From Pseudomonadota bacterium (GTDB lineage Bacteria; Pseudomonadota; Gammaproteobacteria; Acidiferrobacterales; UBA6901), in the NCBI GenBank assembly GCA_021819085.1, contig JAKASJ010000003.1, forward strand, positions 35,272 to 99,271: a stretch of 64,000 bases of DNA, written 5' to 3'. How positions within the stretch are numbered: position 1 is the first letter of the stretch; every line of letters starts with the position of its first letter. The translations under genes and the position numbers were made by a program. Of the stretch, positions 1,514-43,377 are shown one piece after another. The notes beneath the pieces are model-generated. The model was not told the origin of the DNA, did not search any database, and saw only the letters and a program-made list of their open reading frames with translations.

Positions 1514-4500
1514 TCAGAACTTCCCGTAATAGCCCTCCTTGAGGGCGTCATAGAGGTTCGCAGCCGTGTGAATCTCGCCGTCGTACTCGATCTCCTCGTT
1601 GCCCTTCGCTTCAATGACCTCTCCGCCTTCTAGCTGGAAGCGGTAGGTTGTTTTCTCCAGGTCTTTTTCCTTGACCAATACCCCCTGGAATGCCTGCGGA
1701 TTGAAGCGGAAGGTAGTGCATCCCTTGAGACCCTGCTCGTAGGCGTACATGTAGATGTCCTTGAACTCCTCATATGGAAAATCGGTAGGCACATTGGCGG
1801 TCTTGGAGATAGAAGAATCCACCCATTTCTGGGCTGCCGCCTGTACATCCACATGCTGCCGCGGAGAGATGTTGTCAGCGCTGACGAAGTAATCCGGCAG
1901 CCGTGTTTCCGGGTCCTGCGAGTTGGGGTCGGCTTTCGGGTTCACCAGGGTGCGGTAGGCCAGCAGTTCGTAGGAGTATACGTCGATTTTCTCCTTGGTT
2001 TTACGCCCCTCGCGGATGACGTTGCGGCTGTACTGATGGGCAAACGATGGCTCGATGCCGTTGCTGGCGTTATTGGCCAAGGACAGCGATATGGTCCCGG
2101 TCGGAGCGATGGACGTATGGTGGGTGAAACGCACGCCGGTTTCGGCGATGCGATCGGTCAGCGCTTTGCTGAACTTCTGCATGTAGCGGCTGTACTTCGC
2201 AAGAAGCACCTTTCCGGGCACCTTGTCACCGATCTTGTATCCGTCGCGTTTCATCTCCGGGCGCTTGTCCAGCATCTCCGCGGTGACGGCAAAGTCCTCG
2301 ATAAGAATGGGTGCTGGACCCTTTTCTTCCGCTAGGGCGATGCCGGTTTCCCAGCCGACTTCGGCCATTTCCCGAGCAACCCGCTCCGTGAATGCAAGTG
2401 ATTCGGGATCGCCATACGTCATCCTAAGCATCGTCATGGCTGAGCCCAGCCCCAGAAAACCCATACCATGACGGCGCTTGCGGGTAATTTCTTCGCGCTG
2501 TTTCGCCAGAGGCAGGCCGTTGATTTCCACGACGTTATCCAGCATGCGTGTGAAGATCATCACTACCCGGCGGTAGCGGTCCCAGTCGAAACGTGCCTCC
2601 GCGGTAAACGGGCTTTCGATGAACTTCGTAAGATTCACGGACCCCAGAAGGCATGAGCCGTAGGGCGGTAGTGGCTGCTCTCCGCAGGGGTTGGTCGCCC
2701 GGATATTTTCGCAGAACCAGTTGTTGTTCATCTCGTTGATCCGGTCAATCAGGATGAAGCCTGGTTCGGCATAATCGTAGGTCGACGCCATGATCAGGTC
2801 CCAGAGGCGGCGTGCAGGCAGGGTCTTATAGATCTTGCAGGCGACCTGCCCCAGATCGTTGGTAACATAGCCCTGGGTTGTCGGCCAGGGTCGCCAGACA
2901 ATGCGTGTCGTGGCCTGGTCGCACTCAAGCTGATTGGCCGGAAACGCAAGATCCCAGGTAGCGTCATCCTTGACCGCCTGCATGAACTCGTCGGTGATAA
3001 GACACGAAAGGTTGAACTGGCGAAGACGCCCGTCTTCGCGCTTGGCGCGGATGAAGGCTGCAACGTCCGGGTGCGAAATATCGAATGTGCCCATTTGCGC
3101 GCCACGGCGTCCGCCGGCAGAGGAGACCGTGAAGCACATGGCGTTGAAAATATCCATGAAAGACAGCGGACCGGAGGTATGGGCACCGGCTCCGTTCACA
3201 AACGCCCCTTTGGGGCGAAGGGTGGAAAACTCGTAGCCGATGCCGCAGTTGTGGATGACCATCAGTCCGTTTTCGCCCGCCAGATAGTTGTGGTGCTTTT
3301 CGACAGTGAAGTCGTAGAAGGTTTCAGCGATATTCAGGTTGCGGCGCACTGCCTCGACAGGGCGCAAGGTGCGGACAAAATCGATGAGCGGACGAAGCCT
3401 TGGGAAACGCGCACTCCAGCGATCAAGCCAGATGCGGCTTACTGTCCGCTTACGATGGTAACCATGGTAGAAACCGAGTGCTTGCCGCTCTTCATGGTTG
3501 AGCGGGCCGATTTCGGCGCTGAGTGCCTCCATAAGCTGGCTGGGCATGTGGTAGCGATCGTGTTGCCCTGCCTCCCGGCTGGAAAGTTCGCCGATTTGCC
3601 GCCGCTTGCCGCTGTGTGCCATGTATCCGGCTACCTTGGTAAGGAACGTTGAATCGATGATCCTCAGCATGGACCCGACGGTGTTGCAGCTGGCATGGGC
3701 TCGGCAATCCTGCTCGCGCGACTCACGGACGACGATCGCACCGTGCACTCCGAACAGGCCGAGCAATCCTTTGATCTGCTCGGCGAATTCCTGATTGTGC
3801 ATCGAAATGGTTACGCCGTGCCCGGGATTCACCGTCCCGTCGGCGTCGATCAGCCCTGCAAGAAACGGGAGGAAATACCTGTCCGGGTGAGCCGCCACCC
3901 AGGTGGGAACTCGAAGATCGACGCTTTCCCCCCCGATCGGCCCATCGATCAGTTCGGACATCCGGCTGGTCTCCAAGCCGGTGACCGTGAAATCCCAAAC
4001 GGGCGTGCCATGCTCTGTGGCGGTGGCTACGAACTGCGTCTTGAAGCCGCAGAAAGCATGGAAGAATGCGGCGCAGCGTTCGGCCACCTCACGCTCCGCG
4101 GCACGGACCCTGAAGACAATCCGGCGGCCAGCCGCATGGACCGCTTCGACCCATGTCGCATGATTATTCCCGCGTTCGAACCGTTTCCCATGGGCGCCGC
4201 CGTCTCCGAGACAGGTACCGGCGAACCAGGCACGCAGCGCCTGGTTCTCATCGGCCAGCCAGGCGAAGGTATGGTGAACCATGGCATCGCTCGCGCAGAC
4301 TTCATCGGCGCGCACGTAGATGAGCTGGTCGTCGCGGTAGACCAGAACCGGGTGCCTGATGGAGGTTTTCAGGGCTGTGCCACCAGAGCGAATTTCTATA
4401 TTTTCATTGCGCGGCACATGCGTCGTCATGTGGCGGTCAATGCGACGCATTTCGAAGGATCCCGTCTCGCGGTCGTAGCAGAGCATGCGTTCATGGCGCT

Positions 4501-4960
4501 CGGTGACCGCCCGTTCTGCCGTGACCACGCCGTACTCTGTTACCACCTTGGTCTCCGGCGCGACACAGCCCGCCTTCAGGGTCAGACCGGCTTCATGCAC
4601 GGCACTCAGAATCCCGTCCATCGAGTCGCACACAATACCGGAAACGGTGCAGTTGATGGTGCTGGTGGCGGGCTTGTGATCCAGGGCTCCGGCATTGGAC
4701 GTGATGCGACCGGCCGGGATCGCGCCATTTAGCAGCGCCCAAAGAAACTGGTCGAACCATTCCGTGCGTTTCTCCGGCGTATCCTCGACGTCAGCGAGCG
4801 CCCGCGCTATGCGGGTGAAGGTTCCAAGCGTATCCTGGTCGACAGGCTCGCCCGCCTTCGTTTTGAGCCGATACTTCTTGTCCCAAATGTCATAGGAAGC
4901 CGGCTGGAGGGGAATGTCGTAGGGGTCAGCCTGTTGAGCTTGTATTTTCGCCGCCTTCAT
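1514..4960 (-). CDS. nrdJa: Class II ribonucleotide reductase large polypeptide NrdJa, interrupted by an intein
   Basis: ATG at 4960 is preceded by GGAGG (4971-4975 on the + strand). Class II RNR motifs present: TINCTVSG, CGIGYEFSTLRPKG, SSAGGRRGAQMGT, NPCGEQPLPPYGSC. It stops 67 nt before nrdJb. Confidence 0.93.
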   Translation of the reverse strand: MKAAKIQAQQADPYDIPLQPASYDIWDKKYRLKTKAGEPVDQDTLGTFTRIARALADVEDTPEKRTEWFDQFLWALLNGAIPAGRITSNAGALDHKPATSTINCTVSGIVCDSMDGILSAVHEAGLTLKAGCVAPETKVVTEYGVVTAERAVTERHERMLCYDRETGSFEMRRIDRHMTTHVPRNENIEIRSGGTALKTSIRHPVLVYRDDQLIYVRADEVCASDAMVHHTFAWLADENQALRAWFAGTCLGDGGAHGKRFERGNNHATWVEAVHAAGRRIVFRVRAAEREVAERCAAFFHAFCGFKTQFVATATEHGTPVWDFTVTGLETSRMSELIDGPIGGESVDLRVPTWVAAHPDRYFLPFLAGLIDADGTVNPGHGVTISMHNQEFAEQIKGLLGLFGVHGAIVVRESREQDCRAHASCNTVGSMLRIIDSTFLTKVAGYMAHSGKRRQIGELSSREAGQHDRYHMPSQLMEALSAEIGPLNHEERQALGFYHGYHRKRTVSRIWLDRWSARFPRLRPLIDFVRTLRPVEAVRRNLNIAETFYDFTVEKHHNYLAGENGLMVIHNCGIGYEFSTLRPKGAFVNGAGAHTSGPLSFMDIFNAMCFTVSSAGGRRGAQMGTFDISHPDVAAFIRAKREDGRLRQFNLSCLITDEFMQAVKDDATWDLAFPANQLECDQATTRIVWRPWPTTQGYVTNDLGQVACKIYKTLPARRLWDLIMASTYDYAEPGFILIDRINEMNNNWFCENIRATNPCGEQPLPPYGSCLLGSVNLTKFIESPFTAEARFDWDRYRRVVMIFTRMLDNVVEINGLPLAKQREEITRKRRHGMGFLGLGSAMTMLRMTYGDPESLAFTERVAREMAEVGWETGIALAEEKGPAPILIEDFAVTAEMLDKRPEMKRDGYKIGDKVPGKVLLAKYSRYMQKFSKALTDRIAETGVRFTHHTSIAPTGTISLSLANNASNGIEPSFAHQYSRNVIREGRKTKEKIDVYSYELLAYRTLVNPKADPNSQDPETRLPDYFVSADNISPRQHVDVQAAAQKWVDSSISKTANVPTDFPYEEFKDIYMYAYEQGLKGCTTFRFNPQAFQGVLVKEKDLEKTTYRFQLEGGEVIEAKGNEEIEYDGEIHTAANLYDALKEGYYGKF
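3248..4567 (-). mobile_element. Intein (440 aa) with a LAGLIDADG homing-endonuclease domain inside nrdJa
   Basis: Junctions are LKAG|CVAPETKV and GLMVIHN|CGIGYEF (Cys1, terminal His-Asn, Cys+1). Internal motifs are FAGTCLGDGG and FLAGLIDADGTV. Excision restores the contiguous RNR motif. Confidence 0.85.
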
Positions 4961-5023
4961 TGGGTAGATACCTCCTTCACGCTTGCTGGCAGAAACACGC
5001 TTATTATTAGTGTCGAGCACACA

Positions 5024-5039
5024 ATACAATATATTGTGT
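5024..5039 (-). promoter_or_regulatory. NrdR box upstream of nrdJa
   Basis: ATACAATATATTGTGT matches the NrdR consensus acaCwAtATaTwGtgt at 15 of 16 positions. It sits just downstream of the putative -10. A degenerate second box, ACACgcttattattaGTGT, lies at 4995-5013. Confidence 0.6.
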
Positions 5040-5048
5040 TAGATCGCG

Positions 5049-5078
5049 AATGTAGACCCATCAGTTTGTGCATGTCAA
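5049..5078 (-). promoter_or_regulatory. Putative sigma70 promoter of nrdJab
   Basis: Minus strand has TTGACA (5078-5073), an 18-nt spacer and TACATT (5054-5049), about 90 nt upstream of the nrdJa ATG. Confidence 0.45.
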
Positions 5079-5193
5079 GAATTCTTATCCCCATATTCAT
5101 CAATGTTAGTCATCGCTATCGATTCCGGACCACATCCCGTTCGCCTCTATAAATGTTTGCGTCTATATATAAGAAGGACCAGGAATCAGGATA

Positions 5194-5226
5194 GGGGGTC
5201 TTGAGCCGCAACTGGATCTGACCCCC
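5194..5226 (-). terminator. GC hairpin downstream of polX (weak terminator)
   Basis: GGGGGTC ... GACCCCC stem 15-47 nt after the polX stop. No clear U-tract. Confidence 0.35.
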
Positions 5227-5240
5227 TTTGGGGGGCCGCC

Positions 5241-6965
5241 CTAATCCTGGCGTTTCAAAAGGGCGCGGAGCGCGTGCAGTTTCCGTGTATTCAGGATGTC
5301 GGTCTTTTCCAGCCAACCGCGCCGGGCCTGTCCCACACCGTAGACGAGGTTGTCGAAGTCACGCACCGAATGTGCATCTGAGTTGACCGCGACCAAAACT
5401 CCCTCTTCACGTGCCATCTGGCACTGGGTGTCGAGCAGGTCAAGCCGCTCAGGGTGGGCATTGAGCTCGAGAAAACAGCCGTGGCTAGGCGCTGTACTAA
5501 GAATCTTGAGCATGTCCACGTCGTAGGGTTCGCGGCTGCCAAGCAGGCGTCCGCTAGGGTGGGCGAGCACATTCAAATAGGGATTTTCCATAGCCTTTAC
5601 GATGCGGTCGGTCTGTCTTGCCCGTGACAGATGGAACTGGCCATGCACCGCACCGATGACGAGATCAAGTTGAGCAAGTACCGGATCCGGCAGATCGAGC
5701 GATCCGTCCTCCAGGATATCCACCTCGATGCCCTTCAGCAGAGTGATGCCCGGAAGTTCGGCGTTGAGCCCGTCAATCTCGTCGCATTGCCTGAGCAGAT
5801 GGGCTGCGTCGAGCCCACGGGCGACCGTGAGATGCCGCGAATGTTCGGTGATGGCGAGGTATTCAAGTCCCCAGGTCTTGGCTGCCACGGCCATCTCCCT
5901 GAGGGAGTTGCGTCCGTCTGTGGCGCTGGTGTGGGCGTGCAGGTCCCCTCTTAGGTCGCGGGCTTCCACCAGCATCGGCAGCTTGCCGCGGGACGCTGCC
6001 TCGATCTCGCCGCGATCTTCACGCAGCTCCGGCGGGATGAGCGGCAGTCCTACGCTCCGATATACCGATTCCTCTGTGTCTCCGGCGATCCGGGCAGCAC
6101 CTCTGAAAACTCCGTACTCGTTGATTTTCAGGCCCCGTTCCTGGCCTAGCCGGCGAATCGCTATGTTGTGTGCCTTGGATCCAGTGAAATAGTGCAGGGC
6201 GGCCCCGAAAGATTCCGGCGCGACAACGCGCAGGTCGACCTGGATGCCCGATTTGAGAACTACCGTCGACCGGGTCCTGCCTTTTGAAAGCACCTCGCGC
6301 ACCTCGTCATAGCTCGCGAAGCGGGCGATGACGGCCGCAGGATTGCCGGTGGTGACCAGGATGTCGAGGTCGCCCACTGTTTCCTTCATGCGCCGGAAAC
6401 TGCCTGTTACCACGACATTCTCGACCCCCGGGGTTTTGCGGAGGTAGCGTGTCAGGGCGCTGGCGTACTGAGCCGCCACCGCAAGCTTAAAACGTACTGC
6501 CGTGTCACGATGTGCGGCGATGGTTTCCAGAATTCGCTGCTCGGTCTTCGGACCGAATCCCGGAAGCTCACCGAGGCGCCGGTCCCGTGCCGCCCGGTCC
6601 AGCTGTTCGACAGTCTGGATGCCCAGGTCGTGCCACAGCGCACTGACGCGCTTGGGCCCGAGGCCGGGCAGACGCATCAGCTGGGTGACGGAGACCGGGA
6701 CCTGCTTGCGCAGCCTTTTGAGCACAGCACAGCTGCCGGTGTCCAGGATTTCCCGGATCTTGGCGGCAAGATCCCGGCCGATTCCCGGCAGTTCGGTGAG
6801 ATCCATTCCCTCATTCGCCAGTTCGCTGGTTTCCTTGCCGAGCTCTCCCACGACGCGTGCAGCATTTCGGTACGCGCGTATGCGAAACGGATTCTCTCCC
6901 TGGATCTCCAGGATGTCGGCGATCTCATTGAACACCGCAGCGATGTCGGCGTTATGCACAGGCAT
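5241..6965 (-). CDS. polX: Family X DNA polymerase with C-terminal PHP domain (PolX)
   Basis: 574 aa. The N-terminus, MPVHNADIAAVFNEIADILEIQGENPFRIRAYRNAARV, has HhH motifs. A Pol-beta-like core (GSFRRMKETVGDLDIL) is followed by a PHP domain (DLHAHTSATDG ... ITEHS). Confidence 0.9.
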   Translation of the reverse strand: MPVHNADIAAVFNEIADILEIQGENPFRIRAYRNAARVVGELGKETSELANEGMDLTELPGIGRDLAAKIREILDTGSCAVLKRLRKQVPVSVTQLMRLPGLGPKRVSALWHDLGIQTVEQLDRAARDRRLGELPGFGPKTEQRILETIAAHRDTAVRFKLAVAAQYASALTRYLRKTPGVENVVVTGSFRRMKETVGDLDILVTTGNPAAVIARFASYDEVREVLSKGRTRSTVVLKSGIQVDLRVVAPESFGAALHYFTGSKAHNIAIRRLGQERGLKINEYGVFRGAARIAGDTEESVYRSVGLPLIPPELREDRGEIEAASRGKLPMLVEARDLRGDLHAHTSATDGRNSLREMAVAAKTWGLEYLAITEHSRHLTVARGLDAAHLLRQCDEIDGLNAELPGITLLKGIEVDILEDGSLDLPDPVLAQLDLVIGAVHGQFHLSRARQTDRIVKAMENPYLNVLAHPSGRLLGSREPYDVDMLKILSTAPSHGCFLELNAHPERLDLLDTQCQMAREEGVLVAVNSDAHSVRDFDNLVYGVGQARRGWLEKTDILNTRKLHALRALLKRQD

Positions 6966-6989
6966 GGGATCCAGTGCTCCCCGGTTCAG

Positions 6990-8339
6990 TCAGATCGGAC
7001 GAGCGTCGAGCATGTACGCAAGTTCGCGCAGCGCCGAGGAGATCGTGACCGGGTATTGCCCACTTCCCGTGATCTTCTGAAGCTCGGGTGGCAAGCGTGC
7101 CAGTTCGGCAGCCGCGTGTTCACGCACAGCCTCCAGTGTCGCGGGTGGCGCAATGCGCCGACCGGCGCGCATGACCGGTTCCAGCAGCGTTATGCCTTCG
7201 CCGCCCTGGCCCTCCAGGCCTAGCACATCCCCTCGCATGATTCCTTCGCCGTCGAATCTGCGATGCACCTGCTTCGTTCCGGGCCAGGTCGCCTTGCCTT
7301 CCGAGCGCTTGCGCCGTGGTCGACTGGCATACTCCTGAAGCTTGTAGGCGCAATCGAGAAAAGGGGCGTCGGACGAGGTATCCATGCGGGTGCCGACACC
7401 GAAGCCATCAATTGGCGCCTCCTCCGCCAGCAGCCGGGCCAGGCTGAATTCGTCGAGGTTGCCACTGGCAAATATCGTTGTGTGCCGCAGACCGCCATCA
7501 TCCAGAATGCGACGGACCTTGCGTGCATGCGCTCCCAGATCGCCGCTGTCCAGACGTACGCCCTTGATGGTAATGCCTGCAGCCGCCAGACGTGGGGCGA
7601 GCTGTACCACCTTGGCTGCTGCGGCTTCGGTGTCATAGGTATCAATGAGCAGGACGACATTTTCGGGAAGTGAGCGTGCAAAGCGTTCGAATGCGTCGAT
7701 CTCAACCTCGTTTGCCTCGATGAACGAATGCGCCATGGTACCGAACAATGGAATGCCGAAGCGCGGCGCCGCAAGTACGGTCGCAGTCCCGGCGAAACCC
7801 GCCAGGTAACTTGCGCGCGCCGCAAGCAGACCGGCCTCGGCGCCATGCGCCCGGCGCAGCCCGAAATCCACCAGAAGCTTGCCAGGTGCCGCAAGCACGC
7901 AACGTATCGCCTTGGAGGCGATCATTGTCTGGAAATGCAGCAAGTTGATAACGCGGCTTTCGACAAGCTGTGCCTCGGGCAGTGGTGCTGTGACGCGCAG
8001 AATCGGCTCGTCCGCGAAAAACACCGTACCTTCGGCCATGGCATGAACGTCGCCGGTGAATCGCAGCTTGCCGAGATAGTCGACGAACTCCGGCCGGAAT
8101 GAGCCCTGGCGGCCTATCCAGTCCAGCTCCTGTGCTCCAAATTCCAGGTCCTCCAGGAACCCGATAACTTGCTCCAGACCGGCTGCAACGAGGAATCGGC
8201 GTTGCGCGGGGAGCGTACGCACGAAAAACTCGAACACCGCGGTATCCCGCATGTCGTGATCGAAATACGCCTGCAGCATGGTCAATTGGTAGAGATCTGT
8301 AACCAGAGGGGTCGATTCGATATCGCGAAGGTCCGTCAT
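6990..8339 (-). CDS. pncB: Nicotinate phosphoribosyltransferase
   Basis: Starts at ATG 8339 (MTDLRDIESTPLVTDLYQLTMLQAYF...) with an NAPRTase-family fold. ATGA overlap with the pncA stop. The 55-codon upstream extension of the ORF is rejected. Confidence 0.85.
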   Translation of the reverse strand: MTDLRDIESTPLVTDLYQLTMLQAYFDHDMRDTAVFEFFVRTLPAQRRFLVAAGLEQVIGFLEDLEFGAQELDWIGRQGSFRPEFVDYLGKLRFTGDVHAMAEGTVFFADEPILRVTAPLPEAQLVESRVINLLHFQTMIASKAIRCVLAAPGKLLVDFGLRRAHGAEAGLLAARASYLAGFAGTATVLAAPRFGIPLFGTMAHSFIEANEVEIDAFERFARSLPENVVLLIDTYDTEAAAAKVVQLAPRLAAAGITIKGVRLDSGDLGAHARKVRRILDDGGLRHTTIFASGNLDEFSLARLLAEEAPIDGFGVGTRMDTSSDAPFLDCAYKLQEYASRPRRKRSEGKATWPGTKQVHRRFDGEGIMRGDVLGLEGQGGEGITLLEPVMRAGRRIAPPATLEAVREHAAAELARLPPELQKITGSGQYPVTISSALRELAYMLDARPI

Positions 8340-8938
8340 GCATCGATCACTTCGCGTGTCACGGGCCAGGTGCCCCGCGCGCGCATCTGTGCAAGTGCTC
8401 TGGCCCCGTCGCCGTCCGAGACGTCGACGGCGCGCACGGCATCCTCGAGCAGAAAGGTCTCGAACCCCTTGGCCAGGTCGGCGTTGACGGTATTGAGGAC
8501 GCAATAGTCCGTGGCCAGTCCACCGACGAAAACCCGCCGCCCCGAAGCTGCATGCAGCTGTGCGTCAAGATCAGTGCCCGCGAAACCTGAATAGGCATCC
8601 TTTTCCACGGTCGTGTCCCTGGAAACCACCGGTACCGATGCAGGTAATCGCAGACCGGGTGCGAACGCTGCATCCACGGTACCTGCCACGCAACGGGATG
8701 GCCACGGCCCGCCCTGTTCGCGGAAGGAACAGTGGCGCAGCGGGTGCCAGTCGCGGGTAGCGAATACCGGAAGACTCCGAATCGAGAAGGCTGCAACATA
8801 ATGATTGAGCCCTTCGGTGATCTCATCGCCCCCCGGCACTGCCAGGCTGCCTCCGGGGAGAAAATCGTTCCGCACGTCCACGACTGTCAGCGCATCGCCG
8901 ATCCCGATCTTCATCAATGAAGACTTTTCGCCCGCCAT
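8336..8938 (-). CDS. pncA: Nicotinamidase / isochorismatase-family hydrolase
   Basis: Motifs ALTVVDVRNDFLPGGSLAV and the catalytic-Cys context GGLATDYCVLNT. Start is uncertain (ATG 8938, with alternatives at 8965 and 8914). Confidence 0.85.
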   Translation of the reverse strand: MAGEKSSLMKIGIGDALTVVDVRNDFLPGGSLAVPGGDEITEGLNHYVAAFSIRSLPVFATRDWHPLRHCSFREQGGPWPSRCVAGTVDAAFAPGLRLPASVPVVSRDTTVEKDAYSGFAGTDLDAQLHAASGRRVFVGGLATDYCVLNTVNADLAKGFETFLLEDAVRAVDVSDGDGARALAQMRARGTWPVTREVIDA

Positions 8939-8949
8939 GTTCCGGACCC

Positions 8950-10380
8950 TTATCCCTTGATGCATGCCACCGGAACGAGCTTAACTACCTTCCGCGCGAT
9001 GCCGGCGGCGTCCGCGGCATCCACGACCGCCGTGACGTCCTTGTAGGCTTCCGGGGCCTCCTCCGCCACGCCACGCGCAGACAAGCTGCGGATGATGATT
9101 CCTTGCCGTGCAAGGTCGTCGATCACTTGGCGTCCGCGCCACCGGCGGTTTGCCTGGTGGCGGCTCATGGCTCGGCCCGCCCCGTGGCAGGCCGAGCCAA
9201 AGGAAAGCGTCATGCCCTGAGCGGTTCCAGTCATGATGTACGAGGCCGTACCCATGCTCCCGCCGATAAGCACTGGCTGTCCGGCCGCACGCAGTGCCTC
9301 GGGAATCAGCGGGTTACCGGGCCCGAGGGCGCGGGTCGCCCCCTTGCGGTGGACGAACAGCCGGCGACCTATCCCATCGACTACGTGCTGCTCTTCCTTG
9401 CAGGTGTTATGGGAGACATCATACAAGACGCGCAGTCCGGCGCGCGGTAACACCGAGGCGAACGCCTCGCGCGTCAGGTGCGTGATGATCTGCCGGTTGG
9501 CAAGCGCGCAGTTGATTCCAGCGCGCATTGCGCCCAGGTATTCCTGTCCCAGCGGCGAGGATATCGGCGCGCAGGCAAGCTCACGGTCAGGCAGATCAAT
9601 GCCGTATTCGCGGGTCGCCACTGCCATTTTTTTCAGGAATTCGGTGCCGATCTGGTGGCCGAGGCCGCGTGAGCCGCAGTGAATGCTAACCACTATCTCA
9701 TTCTCGTGCAGGCCGAATACGGTGCTCGCCACGGAATCGTATACCTCGGCTACGCGCTGGACTTCCAGGTAGTGGTTGCCGGAGCCCAGCGTACCCATCT
9801 CATCACGCTGGCGCTTTTTGGCGTGGTCGGAAACGGCGTCCGGGACCGCACCGGGCATGCAGCCCTCCTCCTCAATGTACAAGAGGTCTTCGCTGATGCC
9901 ATAGCCTTGCGACACTGCCCAGCGCGCACCGCCGGCGAGCATGGCGTCCATTTCGTCGTGTTCCAGATGTACGCGCCCGGTACTGCCGAGCCCGGCGGGA
10001 ATCCTGAAAAAGAGCACATCCGCGAGATCATTTTTCAATCCTTCAATGTCCGCCAGATCGAGCCCCGTGTGCAGGGTGCGTACCCCACAAGATATATCGA
10101 AACCCACGCCACCGGCCGATACGACTCCACCCTCGTCCGGGTCGAAGGCGGCCACGCCGCCGATGGGAAAGCCGTAACCCCAGTGCGCGTCGGGCATGGC
10201 ATAAGACGCCTTCACAATGCCGGGCAGCATTGCGACATTGGTAACCTGGTCATACACCTTGTTGTCCATGTCGCTGATGAGCTGTCTGCTTGCGAATATC
10301 ACCGCCGGGACCCGCATGTTGCCCCGCGGAGCGATTTCCCACCGGCAGCCCTCGTGTTGGGTAAGCAATGAGAGGTCCAT
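8950..10380 (-). CDS. rtcB: RNA-splicing ligase RtcB (3'-phosphate/5'-hydroxyl RNA ligase)
   Basis: 476 aa with MPDAHWGYGFPIGGV, GGVGFDISCGV, GSGNHYLEVQ, HCGSRGLGHQ and ACHGAGR. SD GGTGA precedes ATG 10380. Confidence 0.95.
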   Translation of the reverse strand: MDLSLLTQHEGCRWEIAPRGNMRVPAVIFASRQLISDMDNKVYDQVTNVAMLPGIVKASYAMPDAHWGYGFPIGGVAAFDPDEGGVVSAGGVGFDISCGVRTLHTGLDLADIEGLKNDLADVLFFRIPAGLGSTGRVHLEHDEMDAMLAGGARWAVSQGYGISEDLLYIEEEGCMPGAVPDAVSDHAKKRQRDEMGTLGSGNHYLEVQRVAEVYDSVASTVFGLHENEIVVSIHCGSRGLGHQIGTEFLKKMAVATREYGIDLPDRELACAPISSPLGQEYLGAMRAGINCALANRQIITHLTREAFASVLPRAGLRVLYDVSHNTCKEEQHVVDGIGRRLFVHRKGATRALGPGNPLIPEALRAAGQPVLIGGSMGTASYIMTGTAQGMTLSFGSACHGAGRAMSRHQANRRWRGRQVIDDLARQGIIIRSLSARGVAEEAPEAYKDVTAVVDAADAAGIARKVVKLVPVACIKG

Positions 10381-10541
10381 GATCTCACCTGCGCTTGCCG
10401 GTACTGAGCGTTGAGCCCCCGGTTGTCGCCTGTCGAAGGTTCCAGGTCCGGCTGGGCTTCAGCCGGTTCCCGAATCGCCGGGTGGACCTGCAATCGCGCA
10501 GCCGGCCGGAAGGTCGCGCCGGTAGATTGGGAAAATCGCGG

Positions 10542-10976
10542 CTACACGTCCACGACGCATTGGGCCACCCATAGCCCGTCGGGGTTCAGTCCTACAGAAA
10601 GGCCGGTGTAAGTAGCGGCTTTGACTTCGACCGCCGGCTGATGGCGTTGGCGATCGATGTGCTCACCGAAAGCGGTGCCGTCAAGACGGTGATCGTCGAC
10701 ATGCACGTTAAATCGACTGAACAGCATGTGGCGCGTTGCCATTTCATACACCAGGGCGTTGAGCCAGTCCACGAGCAAAATCTCGTCGTCAGGCGCCTGG
10801 CAGGCGATAGCTACTGCCTCCCGCACAGCTACCTGCTTCGCGTTCGTGATGACCTGAGTCATGGCCAGCGCCGCCTGTTCGAAGGCTTCATTCTTCGAAC
10901 GCCCGATGCCCCGTATTCCGATGTCCGCTCCGTGCGGGAAATGTTCCCAACGGGCTTCCGTATGCCCTTGTTCCAT
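10542..10976 (-). CDS. Archease (RtcB activator family)
   Basis: 144 aa from ATG 10976. Contains [14 protein letters not shown] and ends in the archease-like C-terminus [11 protein letters not shown]. Located directly upstream of rtcB. Confidence 0.8.
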
Positions 10977-11358
10977 GGATCCATCTTGCGCCCGCAGGCG
11001 TAACCGATCAAGGCGGAAAGCGGCAATATCCGCGTCCGTATGCATATGGCGCAAAAACCACGAATCCGATCCCCGCCGCCGGCGGTCCCCGGCCAGCCGA
11101 CACCCTGCGGTTTTCCAGCAGGCGTGGAAAACGAAGCCTCTCGCCGGGCCGGCTGCCTGGAAGGGGAAGGGTTACAGTCGCATACAGGCCGGGCTGGCAA
11201 GGTTTGGACTCGTTCCGGCTCGATGCACGTATTCAGACGGAGAAAGGGACGGTCCGGAGGCAAAGGTGTTCCCTCGACTTCCGACAGAATCGGCCTGTCT
11301 TGGAAGTGCAGGGCTGTGCGGCAGGTGGCGCGGTCTCCTACTGTTGCGCGGGATACGT

Positions 11359-13491
11359 TCAGGTAGTGAGCCGACGATAGATTTCCGAGACTTTCAGCGG
11401 TAGCCTGCGCACGTCGTCGATAAGCGTCCAGTTCACGGCGCCATACATGTGCGGAAGGTAGTCTCTCGCCTCCGTGTCTATGGTGACGCAGAATGGGTGA
11501 ATCCCGTCACGCTTTGCCTCGATCAGTGCCTGACGCGTGTCCTCGATTCCGTAGTCGCCGCGATAGCCATCGTAGTCATCGGGTTTACCGTCCGACAGCG
11601 TGATCAGAAGCTTGGTGCGTGCCTCTACCTCGTTCAATAATCGGGTCAGGTGGCGGATGGTAACGCCCATGCGCGTGTAGTCTTCCGGCTTGATTCCCGC
11701 GATGCGTGCCCGTACGAGATCCGAATACGGTTCATCAAAGCGTTTGACGCGATAGAGTTCGCAGCGCTTCCGGGTGATGCCGGAAAATCCGTATATGGCA
11801 TAGCGGTCGCCCAGCACCTCGAGCGCCTCGCACAGCAGCACAAGTGCCTCACGTTCGGCGTCGTTGATCCACCCTTTGGTGGAACCGCTCATGTCGACCA
11901 TGAACATAACGGCGATATTGCGTTCCTGCTTGTGCAGTTTGGTGAGCACGCGCTCGCTCATCTCCATGCCGTGACGCATATCCGCATAGGCTTCGACCAA
12001 TGCGTCGAAATCGATATTGTCCCCGTTTTTCTGCCTCTTAAGGAGCTTTTCCTCGCCCCGGAGCGCTTCAAAGGACTTGCGCAAACTGGCGATGGGCGCG
12101 GCGTATTTCTGCCGGGTGCGGGCGACGAAGTCGTCGTCAAGCGGATGGACATCGATCTCCCGCAGAACGCACCAGTGCTTGCGATAATGTTGGCGCCGGT
12201 AGTCCCACTCGTTGTAGAGAAAGGCCCCTTCCTCGTGATAAGTCCCTTTCCAGACGTCATCGGGATTCTTTTCCTCGCCGTCACGCCGATAACTGCCATC
12301 TCCTGCCGCGACCAGGTAATCGTCGGGGATATCGCCGAGGTCCTGAACAATGGAGTCCATCATTGCCTTGACGTCCTGCGGCGGAGTCACAGGCTGACCG
12401 TCGATGGTGAGTTCATAGCGCCATTTTCCAGGTTGATCTGGGTCGGGTGTGCGCTCCACGCGGAACCGTTCGGTGTCATCTTTCGGGTCGCCTTCGAGTC
12501 CGGCGAGTTCCGTGCGCCGGCCCTTGTCATCGAGCAGGCGTGCCAGCGCGGCATGGAACTGATCCTTCTCGCGTGACAGGCGCTGGGCCATGACCTGTTC
12601 GGCGCGACCCGCCTGGAGTGTTCCCTGGTAACATATAGAAGGCGGCAGAACGTCGCCGTACAGGGCGTTCAGGGCGTCGATGGTCGTTTGAACCGAAGCT
12701 TGCGGTGCGCGTAGCGCGCACAACTGTTTCTGCCATGTATCGGGATAGGCGGTTTCATCGAGATCTTCCCGCAGCCGCTGCATGTCCCGATGCAGCCCCG
12801 GCAGATCGGCCGCAAGGCGCGCGTCCAGGCGCACGGTCTCGAGCGCATGAAAAATCTGCTTCGCTCTGTCCTGGTCTGGAAAGCCTGCGAACAGCCCGCA
12901 CAGATCTGACCGGAAGGTTCCATACCAGGTTTGTGCCCACAGATGAGCGGCCATCGCCTTGTACAGGCGAAAATTCTCATCCTTGTTAGGCATGCGGGCC
13001 AGGCTGGACGGAAGAAACAGGGTGCTGGTGTCGGTATAGACCTCTTCGCCCGGCTCGAGTTTGAGCGGTCGTCCGGACAATCCGCGCACAAAGATTTCCA
13101 GGATTCCCGATACATCGTCGAACGACATGCCGCTGACCCGGGTACGTACCCGTGCCGCATAGGCCTCTCCCTCGTGAAATACGGCGCTGGCCGGGTAAAG
13201 ACCCATTCTGTCATAAGTATCCATGGCCTGGATGATCCATGATTCGATGTCATCCGGGTCCATCAGGCGCAGACCCTCGGGCGCCTGTGCAGCAAACTGA
13301 TAGGCAAGCTCGGCGTTGGTCTTGGCGATGATCCCGATCCAACGCAGCACGAATTCCTGCTGGCTGCGGCTGAATTCCGCGAGCATTGCCGCCAGGCCCG
13401 TGGCGGTGCGACGTGATGACAACACCGGATCGAGATACTCGTCGAGTTTTTCCTCGAGCTCGATCGCGGAGAGCGGTGGGGACAGGGTCAT
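11359..13491 (-). CDS. VWA-domain activase partner of the CbbO/NorD family
   Basis: 710 aa with a C-terminal von Willebrand A domain and MIDAS motif (VMFMVDMSGSTKGW). Lies immediately downstream of the CbbQ/NorQ ATPase. Confidence 0.85.
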   Translation of the reverse strand: MTLSPPLSAIELEEKLDEYLDPVLSSRRTATGLAAMLAEFSRSQQEFVLRWIGIIAKTNAELAYQFAAQAPEGLRLMDPDDIESWIIQAMDTYDRMGLYPASAVFHEGEAYAARVRTRVSGMSFDDVSGILEIFVRGLSGRPLKLEPGEEVYTDTSTLFLPSSLARMPNKDENFRLYKAMAAHLWAQTWYGTFRSDLCGLFAGFPDQDRAKQIFHALETVRLDARLAADLPGLHRDMQRLREDLDETAYPDTWQKQLCALRAPQASVQTTIDALNALYGDVLPPSICYQGTLQAGRAEQVMAQRLSREKDQFHAALARLLDDKGRRTELAGLEGDPKDDTERFRVERTPDPDQPGKWRYELTIDGQPVTPPQDVKAMMDSIVQDLGDIPDDYLVAAGDGSYRRDGEEKNPDDVWKGTYHEEGAFLYNEWDYRRQHYRKHWCVLREIDVHPLDDDFVARTRQKYAAPIASLRKSFEALRGEEKLLKRQKNGDNIDFDALVEAYADMRHGMEMSERVLTKLHKQERNIAVMFMVDMSGSTKGWINDAEREALVLLCEALEVLGDRYAIYGFSGITRKRCELYRVKRFDEPYSDLVRARIAGIKPEDYTRMGVTIRHLTRLLNEVEARTKLLITLSDGKPDDYDGYRGDYGIEDTRQALIEAKRDGIHPFCVTIDTEARDYLPHMYGAVNWTLIDDVRRLPLKVSEIYRRLTT

Positions 13492-13532: not shown

Positions 13533-14345
13533 TTAGAACAGCGATGCGCTCAGCTCGTTGATAGCCGCGAGCATCTCGGCGTCATCGGTGAGCGTCTCGG
13601 AAATTGCGCCGCGACAGGCGCGGCGCGGTTCGATTCCGGTTACCATCAGCTTGGCGGCATGCACCAGCAGACGGGTGCTGGCCCCTTCGTCCAGGCCATT
13701 GCCTTTGAGGTTGCGCGTCATGCCGGCGAACTTCACCAGCTTTTCCGCGATCTCCGGACCGATGCCGGATTCGTGCACGATGATGCGCTGCTCCAGGTCC
13801 GAGGTGGGGTAACCGAATTCTATTCCGATGAAGCGCTGGCGGGTGCTCTGTTTCAGATCCTTGAGGATGCTTTGGTATCCAGGGTTGTAGGAGATGGCGA
13901 GACAGAATTCCGGAGTTGCCTCAAGCAGTTCGCCGGTCTTTTCCACTGGCAGAATGCGACGATCATCCGCCAGTGGATGGATCACGACAGTGGTGTCCTT
14001 GCGTGCCTCGACGATTTCATCCAGATAGCAGATTGCGCCTATTCGGACAGCGCGTGCCAGCGGGCCATCTACCCACGCGGTTTCGGCCGCGGTGATGAGG
14101 TAGCGGCCGATCAGATCCGAAGCGGTAAGGTCGTCGTGGCAGGAAACCGTGACAAGCGGTCGGCTGAGGCGCCATGCCATATGCTCCATGAAGCGCGTTT
14201 TGCCACACCCCGTGGGACCCTTCAGCAACACCGGAATCTGGTTGCGATACGCCGCTTCGAACAAGGCAATTTCGTCGCCCTGCGGTTCATAGTAGGGTTC
14301 TTTCTTGACCAGGTATTCCTTGATGCTCACTGCGTGTGCGTCCAC
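13533..14345 (-). CDS. MoxR-type AAA+ ATPase of the CbbQ/NirQ/NorQ family
   Basis: 270 aa with KEPYYEPQGDEIALFEAAY, Walker A GPTGCGKT and Walker B ICYLDEIVEA. Confidence 0.9.
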   Translation of the reverse strand: MDAHAVSIKEYLVKKEPYYEPQGDEIALFEAAYRNQIPVLLKGPTGCGKTRFMEHMAWRLSRPLVTVSCHDDLTASDLIGRYLITAAETAWVDGPLARAVRIGAICYLDEIVEARKDTTVVIHPLADDRRILPVEKTGELLEATPEFCLAISYNPGYQSILKDLKQSTRQRFIGIEFGYPTSDLEQRIIVHESGIGPEIAEKLVKFAGMTRNLKGNGLDEGASTRLLVHAAKLMVTGIEPRRACRGAISETLTDDAEMLAAINELSASLF

Positions 14346-24762: not shown

Positions 24763-26685
24763 TCAGTGACCAGCGGTAGGCTTCGATACGAGATCCACGT
24801 GCGGCTTCTTAAAGACCGTCCACTTCTTGGTCTTCCTGTCGTAGGTGGAGTTCACGAAGCACTTCCAGTTCTTCTCATCGATGAAGTTGTAGTCCATGCG
24901 ATAGTAGAACCCCGGATAGCGCGACTCCTCGCGGAACTGGATATGCTTCATGTGCGCTTCGGCGGTAAGAACACGGTGGTAGTTCTCCCATGCACGCAGC
25001 AGCTCATGCAAGTCCTTGGCGCGCATCTTGAGAGCATCTTCCTTCAGCATCTCAAGCTTGTCCTCGCACACGCTGAGCATCTTGGCGTTGGTCTGGTACC
25101 AGGTCGCCACACCGGCGCAATACTCGTCCATGATCTTCTGCAGACGGAACTGCAGCATCTTAGGCGTGATGTAATGCGGGTTGATGTCGATAGCGGTAGT
25201 GTAGTCCTTGTGCTGGAGGAAGGTGCGTACCGGGCGGTAGATGTCTTCTACAAGTTCATTGACCGGGGTATCGAGCTCCGGCTTCCAGCTCTTGTTGTCG
25301 AGCGCGAACTTGATCATGCCCTTGGCCGCGATACGACCCTCCGCGTGCGAGCCGGAGGAGAACTTGTGACCGGAGGCGCCTACGCCGTCGCCAGCGGTGA
25401 ACAGGCCCTTGACGGTCGTCATGGAGCGGTAGCCCCAGCTCCACTCCTTCGGTGCTCCCAGGTCTTCCGGTCCGGAAACCCAGATTCCACAGCATCCGGA
25501 GTGGGATCCCAGTAGGTACGGTTCGGTAGGCATGAGCTCCGAGGGCTTTTTCTCGGGTTCGATGTTTTCGCCCGCCCATACGCCAGCCTGGCCGATGCAC
25601 ATGTCGAGGAAATCTTCCCAGGCTTCGGCCTCGAGATGCTTGATCTCCTTCGGAGTCATGGTCTCGGCGAGCTTGGCAAGTGCGGTCGGGGTATCCATGT
25701 AAATCGGACCGCGACCTTCCTTCATCTCGTGCATCATCAGGTGGTTGCGCAGGCAGGATGCCGGCACTGCGGCCAATCCGTAGGGCGGATACTGCTTGAG
25801 CATCTCCTTGTTCTTGTCCATGTAGACTTCGCCGAAGGCGTTGACGGCCTTGGCTTTGAACAGCAGGAACCAGGCGCCCACCGGACCGTAGCCGTCCTTG
25901 AAACGGGCGGGTACGAAGCGATTTTCCATCATGGTAAGTTCCGCACCGGCTTCGGCGGCCATTGCATAGGTCGAGCCGGCGTTCCACACCGGGTACCAGG
26001 CGCGGCCCGTGCCTTCGCCCACGGAGCGCGGACGGAAGATGTTCACGGCGCCACCGGCGGCAAGCAGGCAGGCCTTGAACTTGTACACATACACCTTATG
26101 CTCGCGTACGGAGAATCCCACGGCTCCGGAGACGCGCTTTGGATCGTTCTTGTCGTTGACAAGCTTGACGATGAAAACACGTTCCTGGATGTTGTCCATC
26201 CCCAGGGCCTTCTTCGCGGCCTCGGCGACGATCACCTTATAGGACTCGCCATTGATCATGATCTGCCACTTGCCGGAGCGCACGGGCTTGCCACCGTCCT
26301 TGAGCGACTTGCCTTCGTCGCCGGGCTGTTTCCAGATCGGCAGGCCCCATTCCTCGAACAGGTGCACGGAGTCGTCGACATGGCGACCCACGTCGTACGC
26401 CAGATCGTCACGGGTGATGCCCATGAGGTCGTTGGCGACCATGCGTGCATAGTCGGCCGGGTCCTGGCCGCCCATGTAGGTATTGATCGCCGACAGACCC
26501 TGAGCCACTGCGCCGGAACGGTCCATGGCGGCCTTGTCGACCAGCTTGACCTTGAGGCCAGTGCCTTCAACCCAGCGCATCATTTCAAAGGCGCAGCCGC
26601 ACGCGGCCATGCCGCCGCCGATAATGAGGATATCAACTTCTTCCTCGACTACCTGCGGATTTCCAAAAGTTGCTTCTGTAGCCAT
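24763..26685 (-). CDS. aprA: Adenylylsulfate (APS) reductase alpha subunit
   Basis: Starts at ATG 26685 after AGGTGG (MATEATFGNPQVVEEEVDILIIGGGMAACG...). Full-length AprA similarity. The TTG at 26700 lies inside the SD and is rejected. Confidence 0.95.
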   Translation of the reverse strand: MATEATFGNPQVVEEEVDILIIGGGMAACGCAFEMMRWVEGTGLKVKLVDKAAMDRSGAVAQGLSAINTYMGGQDPADYARMVANDLMGITRDDLAYDVGRHVDDSVHLFEEWGLPIWKQPGDEGKSLKDGGKPVRSGKWQIMINGESYKVIVAEAAKKALGMDNIQERVFIVKLVNDKNDPKRVSGAVGFSVREHKVYVYKFKACLLAAGGAVNIFRPRSVGEGTGRAWYPVWNAGSTYAMAAEAGAELTMMENRFVPARFKDGYGPVGAWFLLFKAKAVNAFGEVYMDKNKEMLKQYPPYGLAAVPASCLRNHLMMHEMKEGRGPIYMDTPTALAKLAETMTPKEIKHLEAEAWEDFLDMCIGQAGVWAGENIEPEKKPSELMPTEPYLLGSHSGCCGIWVSGPEDLGAPKEWSWGYRSMTTVKGLFTAGDGVGASGHKFSSGSHAEGRIAAKGMIKFALDNKSWKPELDTPVNELVEDIYRPVRTFLQHKDYTTAIDINPHYITPKMLQFRLQKIMDEYCAGVATWYQTNAKMLSVCEDKLEMLKEDALKMRAKDLHELLRAWENYHRVLTAEAHMKHIQFREESRYPGFYYRMDYNFIDEKNWKCFVNSTYDRKTKKWTVFKKPHVDLVSKPTAGH

Positions 26686-26762
26686 ATTTCCACCTTCCAA
26701 TTTTTTCGTGTCCCGGCAGGGACAACTACGGTCCCTCTCGGCCGGTCACGGGTTGAAAAACA

Positions 26763-27332: not shown

Positions 27333-28547
27333 CTACTTCGCCGAATGGCCGCTCAGTTTCACTTCTACGCGTTCGTGATCCTGGAGGCCTGCGTAGTATT
27401 TGCGCAGGATTTCCAGCACTTCGGGACGGCTGAACTCGGCCGGAACGGCCGCGCCTTCCGAAAGTGCCTTGCGCAGCTTGGTACCGGACAGCAGCAGGCG
27501 GTCACCAGCTTCGTGCGGGCAGGTGCGGGCGCTTGCCATGCCGCCGCACTTGAAGCACCAGAAGGTCCAGTCGATCTTCAGGGGTTTGGTCTGCAGCGCG
27601 TCCTTCGGGATCTCATCGAAGATCTTATGGGCGTCGAATGGCCCGTAGTAATCGCCAACGCCGGCGTGGTCGCGGCCGACTATCAGATGCGAGCAGCCGT
27701 AGTTCTGCCGGAACAGCGCATGCAGCAGCGCCTCACGCGGGCCGGCATAACGCATGTCGAGCGGATAGCCGGACTGCACCACCGTGTTTTTGACGAAGTA
27801 CTTGTCAATCAGCGTGGAAATGGCGTCGGAACGGACTTCCGCCGGGATGTCGCCGGGCTTGAGCTTGCCCAGCAGAGAATGGATCAGCACGCCGTCCAGG
27901 GTTTCCACGGCGATCTTGGCAAGGTATTCGTGGGAGCGGTGCATGGGGTTGCGTGTCTGGAACGCCGCAACGGTCGACCAGCCTTTTTCCTCAAACAGCT
28001 TGCGGGTCTGGGCGGGGGTCATGTAGTTGGAGTATTTCTTGGGGAACTCGCCCTCGGAAAGGACCTTGACCGGTCCTGCCAGGTTTACCTCGCCCTGCTC
28101 CATGACCATCTTGACGCCAGGGTGTTCTAGATCGGTAGTCTTGTACACCATCATGCATTCATGGGCTTTGTCGATGGTGTATTTTTCTGCGACCCGCATT
28201 GTGGCCATCGTTTCGCCCGTTTCCTTGTCGACGAGGGCGATTTCCGAGCCGGTCTTGATGCTGTCAGCCGTTACCTTGTCCGTAGACAGGGTAATCGGTA
28301 TCGGCCAGAACAGGCCGTTGGCCATCTTCATGCCGTCGCAGACGCCTTCCCAGTCGGCGCGGGTCATGAATCCATCGAGAGGAGTGAAGCCGCCGATGCC
28401 CATCATGATCAGGTCGCCGCTTTCGCGGGAGGAAATCTTCACTTTCGGCAAAGATTTCGCGTGCTCCAGTCCGGCCTTGAGTGCGGCACCCTCAAGCAGC
28501 AGGGGCTTGAGGGCATCGCTGCCGTGCGGTTTTACAAGTTTTGCCAT
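27333..28547 (-). CDS. sat: Sulfate adenylyltransferase (dissimilatory-type ATP sulfurylase)
   Basis: 404 aa with [11 protein letters not shown]..., [13 protein letters not shown] and GRDHAGVG. Confidence 0.95.
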
Positions 28548-42920: not shown

Positions 42921-43068
42921 GAAATGAACTGTCTCCTCCCGATCCGGCTGCTCCGCAGCATGGATTGGCGGATTGCCTCGAAGCATCCTTCTGCCACCGT
43001 CCAGATTTGCGCGCGCCGCAGCCTGCATGCCGCTGCTGCCCGGTGGAGCTGGGTAGCGGTTCGGGCCT

Positions 43069-43377
43069 TCACTTCGCGCAGACGTGGCCGAGTTCCGGTG
43101 GCAGCCGCGCCGGCGACAGAATGCGGGCAAGTTTGATTTTGGCGCTATGCCCCCGCACCAGCATGACACGGCTTTTGGCCACTCCGAAACATTCGGCCAG
43201 AAAGGCAATGAGCTGCGCATTCGCGAGGCCATCGACCGGTGCGGCCTTGATGCGCACCTTCACGCAGTCGCCCTGGGCTCCGAGCATCTCGTTGTGACGC
43301 GCGCGCGGCTGGACCCGCAATCTCAAGAGCAGGTCCGGCCCATCCCAGGTTGCCGCCACGGCTAGGCGTTCAGCCAT
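43069..43377 (-). CDS. yggU: YggU (DUF167/UPF0235) protein
   Basis: 102 aa with LRVQPRARHNEM..VKVRIKAAPVDGLANAQLIAFLAECFGVAKSRVMLVRGHSAKIK. Confidence 0.8.
   Translation of the reverse strand: MAERLAVAATWDGPDLLLRLRVQPRARHNEMLGAQGDCVKVRIKAAPVDGLANAQLIAFLAECFGVAKSRVMLVRGHSAKIKLARILSPARLPPELGHVCAK

Follow-up and report, generated by a model that had tools for sequence, protein, structure and literature searches.

The stretch of DNA analysed here, a 64-kb window (W below; related loci compared with it carry L-numbers), comes from a metagenome-assembled genome (MAG) of an uncultured, sulfur-oxidising member of the Acidiferrobacterales. Between positions 5241 and 10976 it holds five genes on the minus strand, which encode archease, the 3'-phosphate/5'-OH ligase RtcB, a nicotinamidase-like protein (PncA), nicotinate phosphoribosyltransferase (PncB) and a family-X DNA polymerase (PolX). 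The locus lies in the core chromosome, and an RtcB identical to that of W is found in several metagenome assemblies and in two MAGs. The grouping is one form of a neighbourhood that occurs, in changing orders, in sulfur- and iron-oxidising Gamma- and Betaproteobacteria, and we consider it moderately probable that it represents a co-regulated nucleic-acid maintenance cluster.

The five open reading frames (ORFs) were confirmed at the coordinates given in an initial annotation of this DNA, and the identities proposed there were borne out by ORF and profile checks. The archease gene (10542-10976) codes for a 144-residue activator of RtcB, which matches PF01951 with 135 bits and the NCBIfam model NF001617 with 126.8 bits (cut-off 126). 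Alignment with L007, L008 and L171 places its start at the ATG at 10976. In the intergenic region upstream of archease, at about 11160-11165, W differs from the same-species assemblies L001, L002 and L005 by a 1-nt G indel (CCAGGC versus CCAGGGC); archease calls of 240 or 167 residues in other assemblies result from this indel, and the upstream extension has no coding conservation in L008. The rtcB gene (8950-10380, 476 residues) encodes a ligase of the archaeal/human type that matches PF01139 over residues 45-476 (563 bits, cut-off 27). It is followed by a pncA-like gene of the isochorismatase family (8336-8938, 200 residues; PF00857, 104 bits), by pncB (6990-8339, 449 residues; NF006696, 638 bits, cut-off 503) and by polX, the product of which has a C-terminal PHP domain (5241-6965, 574 residues; NF006375, 546 bits, cut-off 426). 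The polX gene of L001 (GCA_054636975.1, 13416-15146) is split into calls of 470 and 102 residues by a frameshift or assembly error and is otherwise 99% identical.

The junctions, read from the DNA, agree with those reported initially: 161 nt separate the archease stop from the rtcB ATG, 11 nt the rtcB TAA from the pncA ATG and 24 nt the pncB TGA from the polX ATG, and pncA and pncB overlap as ATGA at 8339-8336 (-4 nt). Consensus scans, which are weak in a G+C-rich genome, gave no promoter-like site within the unit and one terminator-like match in the middle of rtcB, no more than chance would give; shuffled sequences contain more terminator-like matches than this region does. The five genes probably form one transcription unit led by archease, with its start just upstream of that gene. 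Here a motif, TTGATC-N17-CAAGAT (10983-11011, minus strand), stops 6 nt short of the archease ATG. W, L007, L171, L008 and L087 share it and L088 has a related form, and the remainder of the intergenic region between archease and the upstream cbbO-like gene is variable (88 to about 660 nt). The motif is a weak match to the sigma-70 consensus that the promoter scan did not call; we regard it as a candidate control element (promoter or operator) of the cluster.

The earlier description of a tight operon holds as regards packing and probable co-transcription; the hairpins that it placed in the first spacer are no stronger than chance, and the one after polX is weak. The spacer between archease and rtcB (10381-10541, minus strand, 161 nt) is G+C-rich, and its 'nested hairpins' are what such sequence yields by chance (fold z = -0.92 versus shuffles); the hairpin given as an example lies at 10448-10466, one base off the earlier coordinates. 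The spacer is poorly conserved, and in relatives it is 16-58 nt long. A structured RNA in this spacer was rejected on the basis of the z-score, the lack of compensatory changes, substitutions in L007 that break pairs and the unconserved length. A hairpin is indeed present 3' of polX (5179-5240, minus strand; -32.4 kcal/mol). It is weak (z = -1.58, with 16 of 200 shuffles folding as well), is conserved only in L007 and is absent from L008 and L171. An intrinsic terminator at this position was likewise rejected, since the hairpin has no U-tract, was not called by the terminator scan and is weak and unconserved; we describe the region as a weak, non-canonical 3' end.

Known regulatory elements and classical partners of RtcB were also sought. 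An Rfam scan of the whole window at gathering thresholds gave no match, with no riboswitch, small RNA or tRNA in or near the cluster. No sigma-54 consensus (TGGCAC-N5-TTGC-like) was found upstream of archease or rtcB, matches with two mismatches being as frequent as expected from shuffles, and no LexA (SOS) box was found near the cluster. In the 64-kb window, tblastn with Escherichia coli RtcA gave no match better than E = 2.2, and with E. coli RtcR it matched only the AAA region of CbbQ (E = 1e-4). No RTC Pfam domain lies within 10 kb on either side in L001 and L002. These scans agree with the initial remark that RtcA, RtcR and a sigma-54 promoter are absent.

Judged by their catalytic motifs, RtcB, PncB and PolX are intact. 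RtcB can be aligned end to end with Thermus thermophilus TTHA1785 (2EPG) and Pyrococcus horikoshii RtcB (1UC2), and in the alignment with TTHA1785 the active-site motifs SCGVR, GSGNH, GSRGLGHQ, HNT and CHGAGR are all kept; the roles of the metal ligands and of the nucleophilic His (the residues in these motifs include the Cys of SCGVR and the His of GSGNH, GSRGLGHQ and CHGAGR) were taken from the published P. horikoshii structures. Its identity to E. coli RtcB is only 28%, and the protein is therefore assigned to the archaeal/human type that works with archease, of which it is an ordinary member with no distinguishing sequence feature. PncB has all three NAPRTase domains (PF17767, N-terminal; PF04095, catalytic; PF17956, C-terminal) in addition to its equivalog-level match. 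The equivalog match of PolX covers residues 5-573, and residues 4-571 align with T. thermophilus PolX (3AU2). The catalytic Asp motifs GDLDILV and VDLRVV are kept (GDLDFLV and VDLRVV in the T. thermophilus enzyme) and the PHP motifs GDLHAHT, ITEHS, EVDI, AVHG, LAHP and NSDAH are conserved, features of a canonical PolX and not of a 'noncanonical' one in the sense of PMC9226535. The ratio of nonsynonymous to synonymous substitution rates (dN/dS) is 0.09-0.11 for rtcB, 0.11-0.12 for pncB, 0.13-0.17 for polX and 0.12-0.24 for archease, and the range for rtcB, pncB, polX and cbbQO is 0.08-0.17. PncB in particular is under strong purifying selection.

PncA had been proposed to open a route from nicotinamide to nicotinate mononucleotide (NaMN), and in this genome that route is probably broken. 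The best match of PncA in the PDB is P. horikoshii PncA (1ILW; E = 6e-47), and its score of 114 bits against the equivalog model NF008623 is under the cut-off of 174. Of the catalytic triad of the P. horikoshii enzyme (D10, K94 and C133), Asp21 and Cys146 are present in W and Arg107 replaces the catalytic Lys94. Among the metal ligands (D52, H54 and H71 in P. horikoshii), Asp63 and His65 are present and Arg82 replaces His71 (WPSRCV versus WPxHCV). At a third site, Arg23 replaces a conserved Gln. A Lys occupies the catalytic position in 1ILW and in all 12 relatives that cover the site, and K, H and Q are kept at the three sites in relatives, including the sister species L007 and L171. The Arg-bearing protein is identical in seven assemblies of the species to which W belongs. 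The codons concerned are AGG at 8618-8620 (Arg107), CGT at 8693-8695 (Arg82) and CGG at 8870-8872 (Arg23); each substitution is compatible, as judged from the window codons, with one A-to-G difference at codon position 2. The dN/dS of pncA is 0.42 versus L007 and 0.26 versus L008, two to four times the values for the neighbouring genes. In Mycobacterium tuberculosis PncA the corresponding substitutions, K96R and H71R, are pyrazinamide-resistance mutations (PMC8693711, PMC9056903). PncA is probably catalytically impaired as a nicotinamidase in this genome and, with its catalytic residues lost, nicotinate salvage by PncB would be the sole salvage step likely to be working.

The conservation of the adjacency was assessed in two sets of loci. 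The RtcB-anchored set consists of 80 species-representative genome loci, scored by tblastn; the PolX-anchored set consists of 80 metagenome loci with PolX identities of 61-73%, in which neighbours were identified by targeted tblastn and by clustering of all ORFs. Counts were limited to RtcB-anchored loci flanked by 2.5 kb or more on each side and to the 29 PolX-anchored loci with adequate flanks, with partners scored within 5 kb. The adjacency is not unique to one strain, the point on which the initial annotation had asked for a check of gene neighbourhoods. The five-gene order of W is found in three other species, L007 (96% RtcB identity), L008 (85%) and L171, and in L007 and L008 the order is complete, including cbbQO upstream and nrdJ, the gene for a B12-dependent ribonucleotide reductase, downstream.

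Partial and permuted orders are seen at about 70% RtcB identity (L009-L012, L015, L019 and L023). The blocks archease-rtcB, polX and pncA-pncB, often with nrdJ and a gene for a DUF72 protein, occur in about ten arrangements in other Gamma- and Betaproteobacteria. Archease and rtcB are followed by DUF72-pncA-pncB-nrdJ in L009 and L012, by polX-pncA in L010, by polX in L011, by pncA-pncB in L019 and L023 and by DUF72-polX-x-pncB-nrdJ (where x is another gene) in L154, and pncB and rtcB are divergent in L015. The order is pncB-polX-archease-rtcB in L125, polX-archease-rtcB in L124 and pncB-polX-nrdJ in L162. An rtcB-polX-nrdJ order, in part with DUF72 after rtcB, is found in L117, L119, L106, L114 and L089, and in L117 and L119 DUF72 separates rtcB from polX with gaps of 3-7 nt; polX is convergent with pncB-pncA in L131, L136, L142 and L144. 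The DUF72 gene (PF01904) lies between rtcB and polX or pncA at 759-1493 in L117, 3043-3777 in L119, 5932-6669 in L154, 9991-10770 in L009 and 11483-12217 in L012.

In numbers, archease is paired with rtcB in 34 of the 50 rtcB loci examined, and polX, pncA, pncB or DUF72 lies near rtcB in five of the 23 loci with an RtcB identity of at least 64%. In the PolX-anchored set of 80, rtcB is adjacent in 11 loci and pncAB in about ten; among those with adequate flanks, rtcB is present in 5/29, pncB in 5/29 and either of them in 10/29. In neighbour-joining trees, the polX adjacency is spread over several PolX subclades. The gene also accompanies a divergent lineage of RtcB and archease (38% identity for archease; L134, L138 and L140), the Nitrosomonas relatives of which are without polX, and a second pncB lineage (about 50% identity) joins the association in L125 and L162. 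The cbbQO genes, whose link to the cluster is presumably not functional, provide an internal control. They stand beside archease-rtcB only at RtcB identities of at least about 74% (L007, L008, L087, L089 and L171), and the pncAB/polX adjacency reaches further, surviving in loci with changed flanks. Gene orders that are shuffled while the genes stay together, even where the flanks have changed, usually indicate selection for clustering, and the recurrence of the grouping in shuffled orders means that it is probably not due to chance. In a further locus, L041, a 332-residue protein with only the N-terminal HhH domains of PolX (HHH_8 and HHH_5) is encoded at 8997-9995 and ends 6 nt before rtcB; archease in this locus is on the opposite strand, downstream.

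Several observations weigh against a functional grouping. In L087 (80% RtcB identity, same flanks) rtcB leads directly to nrdJ, without pncA-pncB-polX. In L088 (75%) the stretch 9436-10341 holds a 3'-truncated pncA (residues 14-160) and, after it, an internal piece of pncB (residues 153-250); by their sequence these are pseudogene remnants, which the gene caller fused into a 301-residue ORF. L089, L106 and L114 have kept polX and not pncAB, and the pncAB-polX part is dispensable. At most loci encoding this PolX family the adjoining genes are different (CYTH-CHAD, a RimK-like ligase, an alpha/beta-hydrolase, Usp, an HPF-CSD fusion or a LonC-like protease), and in cultured Thiobacillus thioparus the same PolX family has no rtcB or pncAB adjoining it. 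None of the 27 more distant RtcB loci (Thermodesulfobacteria, archaea, Nitrospirota and others) has polX, pncA, pncB or DUF72 near rtcB, and only part of the Proteobacteria shows the association. The probable impairment of PncA in W points in the same direction. The trees are without support values and the metagenome loci are phylogenetically non-independent. Finally, the pattern in the main RtcB clade could have arisen if a single ancestral order between rtcB and nrdJ lost different genes in different lineages.

This last possibility is the core of an alternative that we consider possible, if rather unlikely, namely that the synteny was inherited without functional coupling: an ancestral row of archease-rtcB, pncAB, polX and nrdJ would have been thinned by neutral loss, and the close spacing would reflect the compaction of co-directional housekeeping genes. 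It agrees with the constancy of the archease-rtcB and nrdJ-TSCPD anchors in the main RtcB clade, between which there is nothing in L087, remnants in L088 and unrelated inserts in L089 and L154, as well as with the relaxed constraint on pncA in this genome and with the distant loci, in which no partner gene adjoins rtcB. It accounts less readily for the permuted orders, with polX on either side of archease-rtcB and pncAB on either strand, for the involvement of several PolX subclades, a divergent RtcB/archease lineage and a second pncB lineage, or for an association that outlasts the change of the cbbQO flanks. The independent HhH-only PolX-like gene abutting rtcB in L041 also speaks against it.

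Genes for a LonC/LonB-like AAA protease (AAA_32 and Lon_C domains), for an HPF-cold-shock-domain fusion and for Usp are repeatedly found near rtcB, polX or both (L013, L027, L032, L054, L069, L101, L102, L124, L166, L169 and L172), a hint of a broader neighbourhood linked to stress or dormancy. W has none of these three and no DUF72.

The usual downstream neighbour of the association is nrdJ, seen in L012, L087-L089, L106, L114, L117, L154 and L162. In W it occupies 1514-5078 of the minus strand, including its promoter region. The ORF extends over 1514-5029, with a probable start at the ATG at 4960 and not at the TTG at 5029, and its product matches TIGR02504 with 544 bits. In W, NrdJ carries an intein that includes a LAGLIDADG homing-endonuclease domain; the proteins of L088, L089 and L106 are intein-less, with 708 residues. 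In the region 5018-5078 a promoter-like site, TTGACA-18-TACATT, lies at 5078-5049, followed by a NrdR-box-like palindrome, ACACAATATATTGTAT, at 5039-5024. About 110 nt of this promoter region, the palindrome included, are near-invariant in W, L007, L008 and L171. With its own conserved promoter, nrdJ would therefore be a unit separate from the cluster. On the other side, upstream of archease and co-directional with it, are a cbbO-like VWA gene (11359-13491, minus strand; weak VWA_2 match) and cbbQ (13533-14345, minus strand; AAA_5 and CbbQ_C domains). This pair has no RuBisCO gene adjoining it and is divergent from an hdr-like cluster. The composition of the window is flat and its other genes include aprA, sat, pilT/U, pyrB, gshA/B and tonB, the sulfur-oxidation genes being an aprA-like gene at 24763-26700 and sat at 27333-28547. 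A 772-residue minus-strand ORF at 40914-43232 has a dynamin-family GTPase domain.

Taken together, the genomic association looks real. For the co-regulated maintenance cluster that we favour, we infer both the co-regulation and the following functional logic. RtcB with archease would seal or cap 3'-phosphate (2',3'-cyclic phosphate)/5'-OH ends; PolX would fill gaps, its PHP domain cleaning blocked 3' ends; PncB, plus PncA where intact, would supply NAD synthesis; and NrdJ next door would supply dNTPs. An obligate multi-protein machine is not envisaged, because the parts are freely lost in relatives. The strand of this logic with the firmest footing in published work is the handling of 'dirty' ends. 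RtcB is known to guanylylate and join DNA 3'-phosphate ends in vitro, the cap being extended by polymerases that include the X-family enzyme Pol beta (PMC4381079, PMC4499129), and 3'-phosphatase, 3'-phosphodiesterase, AP-endonuclease and 3'-5' exonuclease activities reside in the PHP domain of bacterial PolX (PMC6616362). DUF72 has been predicted computationally to be endonuclease-IV-like (PMC3828134), and the ligase paired with polX is LigD in Alphaproteobacteria and an ATP-dependent enzyme in Methanomicrobia (PMC9226535). NAD salvage is a looser fit to this scheme. The initial annotation had suggested that gap filling by PolX could be followed by NAD-dependent sealing by LigA. LigA consumes NAD and releases NMN, not nicotinamide; NMN reaches PncA only after glycohydrolysis, and PncA would therefore be an indirect recycler only.

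The same activities would allow a more specific explanation, which we regard as unlikely, in which archease-RtcB repairs DNA ends. It would seal or cap DNA breaks with 3'-phosphate (or, at embedded ribonucleotides, 2',3'-cyclic phosphate) and 5'-OH ends, with PolX and, in relatives, DUF72 as partners, and the neighbouring pncB and nrdJ would provide NAD and dNTPs. The rtcB-DUF72-polX order with its 3-7 nt gaps in L117 and L119, the presence of the trio in L154 and the many loci in which PolX or its HhH module directly abuts rtcB are all consistent with such a role, as are the published action of RtcB on DNA 3'-phosphate ends with cap extension by Pol beta, the 3'-phosphatase activity of the PHP domain, the endonuclease-IV-like prediction for DUF72 and the PolX-ligase pairings of other classes. 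This support, however, consists of gene context and of in-vitro work on other organisms. The established substrates of RtcB are RNAs, the RtcB of W is by sequence an ordinary archease-dependent enzyme, and DUF72 is not found in W.

The explanation first put forward, a recovery module induced by ribotoxin, NADase or ADP-ribosylation attack in which RNA repair is combined with refilling of NAD from nicotinamide, is very improbable: the genes are co-located, RtcB systems of other organisms react to damage by ribotoxins (PMC9304027, PMC7790460) and NADases and ADP-ribosyltransferases release nicotinamide, but nothing specific supports it here, since no toxin, immunity, sensor or defence gene was found near the cluster, the PADLOC defence models gave no match to the five cluster proteins (CbbQ having generic AAA similarity only), the RtcR/CARF sensor and a sigma-54 site are absent, the locus is in a core chromosome of flat composition with core metabolic flanks, PncA is without the catalytic Lys and one metal ligand, and close relatives have lost pncAB or keep it only as pseudogenes.

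The co-regulated maintenance cluster remains the reading that we prefer, and its interest lies in the recurrent link between archease-RtcB and PolX, a testable hint that these proteins, together in relatives with the uncharacterised EndoIV-like DUF72, act on the same lesions. The link bears on the question of the physiological substrates of bacterial RtcB beyond the E. coli Rtc system. To our knowledge, no cellular pathway has yet been linked to the capping or joining of DNA 3'-phosphate ends by RtcB; DNA-end repair, if true, would give these in-vitro activities a physiological role. The link with NAD salvage and nrdJ suggests co-regulated 'maintenance' genes in slow-growing chemolithotrophs, and the carriers of the association are mostly uncultured. 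If the synteny is inherited only, the locus is an ordinary RtcB-archease operon with housekeeping passengers.

The archease-RtcB core is a known operon, and its extension with pncAB and polX is undescribed in the literature searched. Leaving aside Burroughs & Aravind (2016), which may list such neighbourhoods, the search returned no paper that pairs RtcB with pncA, pncB or nicotinamidase; the text and the text-form supplementary files of PMC9226535 make no mention of RtcB, archease or NAPRTase. The closest known system is the archease-RtcB 'tRNA splicing/RNA repair' operon (Desai et al., 2014, PMC3973293; 2015, PMC4604427), in which archease likewise directly precedes a co-directional rtcB of the archaeal/human type; here and in some related Proteobacteria, pncA-pncB and polX are added to the pair, as is DUF72 in relatives. 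The Rtc system of E. coli and Salmonella (rtcBA with RtcR and sigma-54; PMC7790460, PMC5175333) shares a ligase of the same RtcB family, presumed to repair RNA with 2',3'-cyclic phosphate/5'-OH ends. It differs in that W has no RtcA, RtcR/CARF or sigma-54 promoter, and in that the RtcB of W, with its low identity to the E. coli protein (28%), comes with archease. The usual pncA-pncB salvage pair, the Preiss-Handler entry of the pyridine nucleotide cycle, shows the same adjacency and translational coupling, whereas the pair in W is embedded behind rtcB with no room for a promoter of its own, and its PncA has Arg at the positions of the catalytic Lys and a metal-binding His. In the PolX-ligase pairings (Prostova et al., 2022, PMC9226535), a canonical PolX likewise adjoins a strand-joining enzyme in a class-specific neighbourhood. 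In contrast to the LigD and ATP-dependent ligases of those pairings, the partner in W is RtcB, a GTP-using enzyme with 3'-phosphate/5'-OH chemistry and RNA as its established substrate, and the RtcB-PolX link would extend the pattern of PolX paired with a class-specific ligase.

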